From NCBI GenBank assembly GCA_052034955.1, contig JBPOHZ010000002.1, positions 10,790 to 74,789 of the forward strand: a stretch of DNA of 64,000 bases. The letters are read 5' to 3'. Shown here piece after piece: positions 4,166 to 4,672 of the stretch (position 1 is the first letter of the stretch; every line of letters begins with the position of its first letter). A program made the position numbers and the translations under genes. The notes under the pieces are model-generated. The model was not told the DNA's origin, made no database searches, and saw nothing but the letters and a program-made list of their open reading frames with translations. The stretch comes from Candidatus Saccharimonadota bacterium. GTDB lineage: Bacteria > Patescibacteriota > Saccharimonadia > Saccharimonadales > AWTP1-31.

Positions 4166-4672
4166 CTACGCGTCATGTTCACTATTAAATGTAGCTTCAT
4201 CAATATTATTACCCTTAACGAAACCAAACTTTGCAAAAAATGTTGCCCGCCGTTGGCTGCGTTGCAACCTTTCTTTAGCAAGATATTGCTTGATAGTCTC
4301 TCTCGAGGTACCCGATATCGACATCTCTGACCTTACATTCCATAAACAGAAAGGATTTAAGTCATTAATAAACTGCCGGGCCGGTTCAAGCACATAACGA
4401 TTAAAGCTGCCAGGTACCTGATCTGCCCAGGCATCTCTTTCGTACAATAATTCACCGTCCAGGTCGGCATACGGGTCATCACGGAATTCATCTAATTTTG
4501 CCTGAAAGCTTGGGTATGGTGGGCCAAAGCGCAGGGCAGCCTCCATATCAAGTCTTTGCATTATTAAACCTCGCCTATCTTCACTAGAAAGATCTGATTC
4601 CTGTGGTGCCACTTCCAAACCCGTAGCAATTGTAAACTGCTCTGGACTTATACCATTTCTAAAGTCTGTCAT
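4166..4672 (-). CDS. Hypothetical 168-aa acidic protein (X2) inserted between atpG and atpD
   Basis: Its ATG overlaps the atpG TGA (ATGA). Its stop is followed by a 17-nt spacer containing AAGGAG, then the atpD ATG. I recognise no motif. Confidence 0.65.

Follow-up and report, generated by a model that had tools for sequence, protein, structure and literature searches.

Few bacterial genes are as conserved or as tightly packed as the F1 genes of ATP synthase, and the genomes of Saccharibacteria are very small and streamlined. The atp operon described here lies on the minus strand of a 64,000-nt stretch of contig JBPOHZ010000002.1 from a Candidatus Saccharimonadota bacterium. The whole of this stretch is referred to as the window, and all coordinates are window positions. 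Three junctions between the F1 genes each hold an additional open reading frame (ORF): X1 between the genes for alpha and gamma, X2 between those for gamma (atpG) and beta (atpD), and X3 between those for beta and epsilon (Table 1). This paper is concerned mainly with X2, which was called the largest insert in an earlier note on this DNA, and rightly so (168 aa, against 89 aa for X1 and 78 aa for X3). X2 is shown to be a genuine coding sequence, which is translationally coupled to gamma and placed to hand ribosomes over to beta. It is also shown to belong to a clade-wide, position-specific and fast-evolving class of interstitial ORFs, found in a large clade of Saccharimonadales.

The gamma-to-beta interval of the window is spanned from end to end by X2. 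The start codon of X2 (ATG, 4672-4670) shares bases with the stop codon of atpG (TGA, 4671-4669), giving the sequence ATGA, and it is preceded by a Shine-Dalgarno-like GGAGG inside atpG. At the other end X2 terminates with TAG (4168-4166), 17 nt before the start of atpD, and the AAGGAG of atpD follows just downstream. The ORF is therefore placed in the gap with offsets of -3 and -18, and covers 97% of its 520 nt. The earlier note had described an acidic, protein-like ORF at this place, sharing an ATGA junction with gamma and sitting directly before the AAGGAG of beta. The same ORF, with its translation, is present in the ORF list, and both junctions can be read directly in the sequence.

Table 1. 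Coordinates of X2, its signals and the genes of the atp operon in the window.
Feature	Position	Strand	Remarks
atpB	8669-9544	minus	
atpE	8338-8604	minus	
atpF	7765-8316	minus	
atpH	7341-7763	minus	
atpA	5800-7329	minus	
X1, 89-aa acidic interstitial ORF	5528-5797	minus	alpha-gamma junction; ORF list; coding-frame codon signal
atpG (F1 gamma)	4669-5535	minus	upstream partner of X2; PF00231 at 4.4e-88
GGAGG, Shine-Dalgarno-like, for X2	4680-4684	minus	within the last atpG codons, 7 nt upstream of the X2 ATG
ATGA, overlap of X2 start and atpG stop	4669-4672	minus	read from sequence; translational coupling
X2, 168-aa acidic interstitial ORF	4166-4672	minus	between atpG and atpD; ORF list
Conserved core of X2, residues 50-86	4415-4525	minus	sole part with detectable relatives
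AAGGAG, ribosome-binding site of atpD	4153-4158	minus	between the X2 stop and the atpD ATG (4146-4148)
atpD (F1 beta)	2769-4148	minus	downstream partner of X2; ATP-synt_ab_N, ATP-synt_ab and ATP-synt_VA_C domains
X3, 78-aa acidic interstitial ORF	2531-2767	minus	beta-epsilon junction; ORF list; coding-frame codon signal
atpC	2106-2534	minus	

That X2 is a gene is indicated by several properties of the sequence. When the 520-nt gap is shuffled, an open frame of at least 160 stop-free codons appears in 0.085% of the shuffles, corresponding to a chance of about 8.5e-4. A codon-usage model was trained on 32 long genes of the window, and the log-likelihood of X2 under this model is positive in the annotated frame only, at 0.175 bits per codon (compared with 0.28 for X1, 0.23 for X3, and 0.21-0.29 for gamma, epsilon and delta). 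The base composition by codon position is like that of the neighbouring genes. The exact protein is also on record from independent gene calls, on an 88-kb NCBI contig and on a Logan contig, and X2 is carried by the sample of SRR34217545. Close to X2, internal promoters and terminators occur at or below the counts expected from shuffles, and there is no Rfam family; the single sub-threshold Rfam match is located elsewhere.

The predicted protein has an isoelectric point (pI) of 4.75 and a net charge of -8, with two Trp and nine Pro residues, and it includes a basic stretch. The maximum hydropathy over 19 residues on the Kyte-Doolittle scale is 0.25, which bears out the previous statement that it has no transmembrane segment. 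AlphaFold2 generates a helical model of low confidence, with a predicted local distance difference test score (pLDDT) of 41 from the single sequence and 46.5 from an alignment of four sequences.

X2 has no match in Pfam, NCBIfam, PHROG, PADLOC or the PDB sequences, nor in tblastn searches against phages. In Pfam there is no family for X2 at E<=1, and in the PDB no relative at E<0.4. None of X1, X2 and X3 matches any PADLOC family at E<=1, so that there is no sign in these models of a component of anti-phage defence. The earlier note had seen no nucleotide-binding or nuclease motif, and the library searches likewise contain no recognisable catalytic or mobile-element domain; nor do they yield a confident match to any unrelated, well-known family. 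In a word-indexed search of 5.8 billion protein clusters the only sequence recovered was X2 itself, and no full-length homolog is present in these clusters or in 1.84 billion representative sequences. Three weak phmmer matches among the representatives (P0002-P0004) are to tandem-repeat proteins, in which 4-7 repeats add up to the score, and were set aside as spurious.

A part of X2 does, nevertheless, have relatives. Within the set of 237 gap ORFs described below, residues 50-86 match the ORF L122_gb2 (BLASTP, 36 bits, E=2e-6), and a profile made from X2, L122_gb2 and L055_gb1 recovers three further proteins of 68-71 aa, P0006, P0007 and P0008, at 1e-22 to 1e-28. The positional family thus defined has five sequences (X2, P0006, P0007, P0008 and L122_gb2), which share the core pattern G-x-PYP...DPY...EL...R-x-x-W. 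The core covers about 22% of X2, and the remainder of the protein has no counterpart. All of the relatives are encoded in the gamma-beta gap of other Saccharimonadales, immediately upstream of atpD; one of them, P0007, occurs on 20 contigs drawn from NCBI, ENA and Logan. The gamma subunits in these genomes are about 59% identical to that of the window, and the core has therefore been retained over a deep split. In a comparison of two such operons, the 68-aa gene of the family has a nonsynonymous divergence (dN) of 0.052 and a synonymous divergence (dS) of 0.12.

The nearest relatives of the organism were located by scans with gamma, whose best matches are to Candidatus Saccharibacteria of the order Saccharimonadales. 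Among genomes the closest gamma sequences have 80% identity, and among metagenomes 79%, with none nearer. X2 appears to be an orphan because the nearest sequenced relative is at 80% in gamma, a distance at which the gap ORFs have already diverged beyond recognition.

Three other origins or affiliations of X2 were considered and rejected. It does not appear to be a fusion of the 45-aa and 68-aa ORFs found in operons of the L122 type, the N-terminus of X2 being no more similar to the 45-aa ORF than are shuffled sequences (Smith-Waterman, p=0.24-0.6). It is not related to a nine-member family that also precedes beta and carries the motif YIPYE (hhalign probability 0.1%). Finally, neither X2 nor any other gap ORF looks like a degenerate duplicate of an ATP synthase subunit, as profiles of all eight subunits match no gap ORF at E<=1.

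The atp operon was compared with 160 related atp operons, in which 237 gap ORFs were identified; gaps of more than 100 bp are here called expanded. Each of the alpha-gamma, gamma-beta and beta-epsilon junctions is either compact or expanded, measuring 100-1300 bp in the latter case, and expanded junctions occur in most genomes in which gamma is at least about 57% identical to that of the window. In the 204 expanded gaps, the median coverage by ORFs on the same strand is 98%, against 42% on the opposite strand, and same-strand ORFs fill more than 85% of the gap in 88% of cases, a level reached on the other strand in 8%. The ORFs begin at or overlap the upstream stop codon and finish at the downstream ribosome-binding site or start codon. 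The start offset of -3 seen for X2 is also found in most of the first gamma-beta ORFs of related loci. By contrast with the three F1 junctions, the b-delta and delta-alpha junctions are nearly always tight, and the a-c and c-b spacers are usually short; in about half of the closest relatives the c-b spacer exceeds 100 nt, and its ORFs are not coding-like.

The gap ORFs also resemble one another in composition. The first 148 of them have a median pI of 4.6, with 81% below 5.5, and gap ORFs are poor in Lys, with a G+C content at third codon positions slightly below that of the core genes. Only one of 132 non-redundant gap ORFs contains a known domain, which is PF05635 (at 8.8e-35), the 23S rRNA intervening-sequence protein; a related PHROG is annotated as 'Avd protein of DGR'. 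X2 has all the features of the class, being a same-strand junction filler that is coupled, acidic (pI 4.75, against the class median of 4.6), soluble and without known domains. No relative of a gap ORF was found outside the atp gaps in any of the locus sequences examined. The sizes of the gaps are bimodal, either empty or occupied, with peaks for the occupied gaps at 180-300 nt for beta-epsilon and 240-360 nt for alpha-gamma. The inserts therefore behave as discrete units.

It is the position that is conserved, and not the sequence. Of the 237 gap ORFs, 120 stay singletons even when profile searches are iterated. Those that form families are specific to one junction, with the exception of PF05635. 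The phylogenetic distribution and synteny of X2 had been proposed as a check in the earlier note. On this check the gamma-beta position proves to be occupied in most related atp operons, which is far from the absence that would have told against X2, whereas the sequence is not conserved and one close relative, L002, has no insert.

Some further observations were made on these families and junctions. A beta-epsilon family with an N-terminal motif Y-T-P-x(3-5)-L-N-D extends over distant lineages (L009, L011, L020, L021, L027, L032, L034 and L056, with the close relatives L116 and L120), and the nine-member family noted above, which lies in the gamma-beta gap, has the pattern Y-I/V-P-Y-E ... DP ... 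AY..G. One operon, L033, has expanded gaps at almost every atp junction, including c-b, b-delta and delta-alpha, and the last two are filled by acidic ORFs; another, L020, has an ORF of 121 aa in b-delta. The phenomenon is therefore enriched at the F1 junctions without being confined to them.

The rate at which the gap ORFs change can be gauged against gamma. Where two gamma sequences are 96.5% identical, the corresponding gap ORFs have identities of 95-98%; these fall to 37-71% where gamma is about 90% identical, and below 80% most gap ORFs have no detectable similarity. The ratio dN/dS is 0.2-0.45 for gap ORFs, and 0.004-0.06 for alpha, beta, gamma and epsilon. This implies that the gap ORFs are under purifying selection, yet change 10-30 times faster than the F1 subunits. 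Whole inserts also come and go, even in the clade to which the window belongs. In the window, the alpha-gamma, gamma-beta and beta-epsilon gaps measure 264, 520 and 234 nt, respectively; the corresponding values are 6, 86 and 52 nt in L002, 5, 524 and 262 nt in L004, and 558, 516 and 2 nt in L006. The clearest case is provided by L003 (4994-5001) and L082 (3641-4001), whose gamma subunits are 96.5% identical and which differ by a clean alpha-gamma indel of 353 bp holding an ORF of 120 aa. The indel has no target-site duplication and no border repeats. In L082 the 5-nt sequence AGATG stands at both ends. The 120-aa ORF, so recently gained or lost, is itself an orphan.

In three close pairs (L003/L082, L130/L131 and L162/L166) dS was seen to alternate along the operon, with values of 0.22-0.66 in the core F1 genes and 0.03-0.12 in most of the gap ORFs compared; the synonymous divergence of gap ORFs is 2-5-fold below that of their flanks. 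A few gap ORFs, such as o45, o52 and L056 be1, have higher or core-like values. The pattern could arise from recombination or assembly mosaicism limited to the conserved genes, from recent sweeps of cassettes, or from constraint on synonymous sites.

The short gaps provide information on translation across the junctions. Of the gaps of 30-130 nt, 45% are bridged over at least 80% of their length by mini-ORFs of 9-43 codons, compared with 9.6% in shuffles. For short gamma-beta gaps the figure is 16 of 20, where 3.4 would be expected. The gamma-beta junction is bridged in most relatives, by ORFs ranging from 9 to 312 codons. In counts uncorrected for phylogeny, GGAGG is found in the last 20 nt of gamma in 70 of 80 operons with a long gamma-beta gap, in 13 of 20 with a short gap, and in 2 of 33 with a compact junction. 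On the basis of the bridged short gaps and the distribution of GGAGG, translation across the spacer appears to be a maintained property. A search for mRNA structure masking the ribosome-binding site of beta found none (z=0.28).

Translational coupling by overlap is classical, an example being atpH-atpA in the atp operon of E. coli. The junctions described here share with such systems the ATGA overlap of stop and start, the Shine-Dalgarno sequence inside the upstream gene and the use of short bridging ORFs, in an arrangement where downstream initiation depends on upstream translation. They differ in that the bridge is here an ORF in its own right, which can reach 312 codons, has a selected protein sequence, occurs at three junctions and is hypervariable over the clade, and also in the lack of a masking structure noted above.

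We tentatively favour a combined reading of these observations, in which X2 is a real, translated gene whose product is a dispensable accessory factor of F1, while its translation doubles as a relay. The product, with a mass of about 19 kDa, would be soluble, acidic and for the most part helical; it would be synthesised along with gamma and beta, and may act in the assembly of F1 or in the control of ATP hydrolysis. Translation of X2 would at the same time bring ribosomes to the start site of beta, and would keep the stretch of mRNA between gamma and beta from staying untranslated.

Several points weigh against this reading. Operon position and co-translation are what would connect X2 to F1, and AlphaFold2 gives no confident fold in either run. 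The low conservation of the gap ORFs is hard to reconcile with binding to the highly conserved surfaces of alpha, beta and gamma. In L002 and L084, with gamma identities of 72-78%, all three junctions are empty or nearly so, and together with the presence and absence seen in L003 and L082 this implies that gap ORFs are dispensable. The same gap can be bridged by mini-ORFs of 9-20 codons, so translation itself, rather than the peptide, may be what is selected. On the side of the relay, the correlation of GGAGG with a downstream ORF is one of raw counts that carry no correction for phylogeny, and as no sequestering RNA structure was detected, a coupling mechanism that works by opening such a structure is unsupported.

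A different explanation is that the gamma-beta spacer is tolerated only while it is translated, giving hand-over of ribosomes without polarity, and that the X2 peptide is functionless, needing merely to be soluble and harmless. This would account for the bridging of junctions by ORFs of 9 to 312 codons far above chance, the extreme turnover that leaves half of the gap ORFs as singletons, the acidic and Lys-poor composition, the absence of a known domain from 131 of 132 non-redundant ORFs, the gain or loss of whole units between close relatives, and the lack of a confident fold. We nevertheless regard it as somewhat unlikely, since dN/dS is clearly below 1. For example, between the gamma-beta ORFs (gb1) of L003 and L082 there are 14.5 changes at nonsynonymous and 12.5 at synonymous sites, the former sites being about 3.3 times more numerous. 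In addition, the X2 core, the nine-member pre-beta family and the YTP..LND family persist across lineages in which synonymous sites are saturated, the bimodal gap sizes with their junction-specific peaks point to discrete protein-sized units, and the explanation does not say where the spacer DNA came from. Another explanation, in which X2 is not a gene but either an open frame that arose by chance in a non-coding spacer after its expansion or a pseudogene in decay, is hardly credible: the failure to find a full-length homolog or a confident structure is what one would expect of it, but the shuffling result, the frame-specific codon signal, the exact junctions, the preferential filling of expanded gaps on the coding strand and the conservation of the core in positional relatives all speak for a gene. 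Alternatively, X2 could be a selfish or mobile cassette, which inserts itself between essential, conserved genes and is spread by recombination in the conserved sequence on either side, in the manner of free-standing phage genes for homing endonucleases or of the ORFs in 23S rRNA intervening sequences. In keeping with this, gap ORFs have a patchy presence over the tree and one was cleanly inserted or deleted between genomes with 96.5% identical gamma; PF05635 occupies beta-epsilon in some genomes and alpha-gamma in others; the alpha-gamma ORF of L006 is related to gamma-beta ORFs of L003 and L004; and in several close pairs the synonymous divergence of gap ORFs is far below that of the flanks, as recent spread would give. 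We consider it improbable all the same, because library searches reveal no mobility domain in X2, whether of a nuclease, an integrase or another kind, and no phage match, and X2 has neither repeats nor target-site duplications. No copy of X1, X2 or X3 was found by blastn or tblastx elsewhere in the 64-kb window, nor one of X2 in any locus flank, the codon usage and base composition of X2 are native, the families are otherwise strictly gap-specific and distributed as under vertical descent, and the PF05635 ORFs are unlike X2 and have flanks of their own of 20-50 nt.

Two explanations assign the gap ORFs a more specific role in F1. Atp11 and Atp12 are soluble proteins of mitochondria and alphaproteobacteria, proposed to act on unassembled beta and alpha, respectively, and the place of X2 beside beta invites the analogy, which the earlier note had offered as speculation. 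A dedicated assembly chaperone of this kind would fit a soluble, acidic protein encoded immediately before beta and co-translated with gamma, at a position that is occupied in most of the clade. However, Atp11 and Atp12 form conserved families with genes located elsewhere, to which X2 has no sequence similarity: it matches neither the ATP11 and ATP12 families of Pfam nor any solved structure, and the searches of Pfam, NCBIfam and the PDB came back empty. ORFs of the X2 type become unrecognisable over distances between genus and family, and are missing in close relatives, one of which, L002, assembles F1 without an insert. A protein that recognises the nearly invariant beta would moreover be expected to be conserved, and the gap ORFs are not. 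An Atp11- or Atp12-like role for X2 is not supported by these comparisons, and seems very improbable; a translation relay, or an accessory role under loose constraint, accounts for X2 no less well than a dedicated chaperone would. The second proposal, which we think quite unlikely, is that X1, X2, X3 and their positional counterparts are lineage-specific, fast-evolving accessory subunits or regulators of the Saccharibacterial F1, with a turnover that reflects ongoing conflict and not relaxed constraint. If this were true, they might be, for example, brakes on ATP hydrolysis in a host-free stage, or shields against F1Fo-targeting compounds from the actinobacterial hosts.

The combined reading, of a dispensable accessory factor whose translation also serves as a relay, may be set beside other proteins associated with ATP synthase. 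AtpI/UncI, AtpZ, AtpQ and AtpR are non-subunit ORFs of F-type and N-type atp operons, co-transcribed and dispensable in many lineages. X2 is like them an extra ORF within an atp operon, but they are small membrane proteins encoded beside the Fo genes and belong to conserved, recognisable families, whereas the X2 gene stands between two F1 genes, and its soluble, acidic product has neither a transmembrane segment nor a family. The inhibitors of F1 (IF1, the alphaproteobacterial zeta, the cyanobacterial AtpTheta, and the C-terminal domain of epsilon) are small, largely helical and non-essential, and block wasteful hydrolysis of ATP. A block of this kind is a plausible need for an episymbiont. 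As a rule, however, the inhibitors are basic or amphipathic and belong to conserved families whose genes are apart from those of F1, X2 has no Pfam match or similarity to inhibitor families, and the epsilon profile matches no gap ORF. The PF05635 proteins, finally, are small helical ORFs inserted in highly conserved and highly expressed loci, and members of the family share the same atp junctions with ORFs of the X2 class, but X2 does not match PF05635 (0 families).

The PF05635 proteins lie in the beta-epsilon gap of L010, L047 and L069 and in the alpha-gamma gap of L044 and L098. Their ORFs have the separate flanks mentioned above, and are well conserved, with 50-56% identity across genomes in which gamma is only about 50% identical. 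This suggests that the PF05635 ORF is independently mobile and makes use of the same atp sites.

The other two inserts of the window have the same coupling geometry as X2. X3 overlaps atpC by ATGA. X1 has no stop codon of its own, its TAG being supplied by codons 2-3 of gamma (5528-5535). Many other alpha-gamma ORFs end in the same way, at the TAG of gamma codons 2-3 (ATG/GTG GCT AGT), with an overlap of 8 nt. Neither X1 nor X3 has a family in Pfam or NCBIfam above threshold, the sole match for X1 being to MlrC_C at E=0.043, below the cut-off, and neither has a relative among the 237 gap ORFs. Membership of X3 in the YTP..LND family was considered and rejected, as it is undetected by the hidden Markov model of that family.

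Elsewhere in the window, a large serine recombinase (with Resolvase, Recombinase and Zn_ribbon_recom domains) adjoins several genes without Pfam matches and one for a SHOCT-domain protein, at 17977-23581; this region is probably an integrated mobile element or a prophage remnant. A protein of 1023 aa with a pI of 4.2, encoded on the plus strand at 30081-33152, contains Laminin_G_3, PKD and bacterial Ig-like domains, and is likely to be a surface or adhesion protein.

Full-text searches of the literature turned up no earlier account of ORFs lying between the F1 genes, either in Saccharibacteria or in the wider candidate phyla radiation (CPR). Within the CPR, a novel pilus (pam) operon is reported in a 2026 preprint to be consistently co-localised with the ATP synthase genes (bioRxiv 10.64898/2026.03.03.709456).

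Compared with classical coupling by overlap and with the known extra genes of atp operons, protein-sized and hypervariable coupling ORFs at three F1 junctions appear to be new. That more than 200 different and mostly unrecognisable ORFs are kept at three junctions of this operon is unexpected in a streamlined clade. They provide a natural system for the origin, divergence and loss of orphan proteins at a fixed and highly expressed address, and a testable case of relay ORFs in translational coupling. They are also candidate accessory factors of the ATP synthase in a lineage that depends on hosts and is uncultivated, and of whose energy metabolism little is understood.

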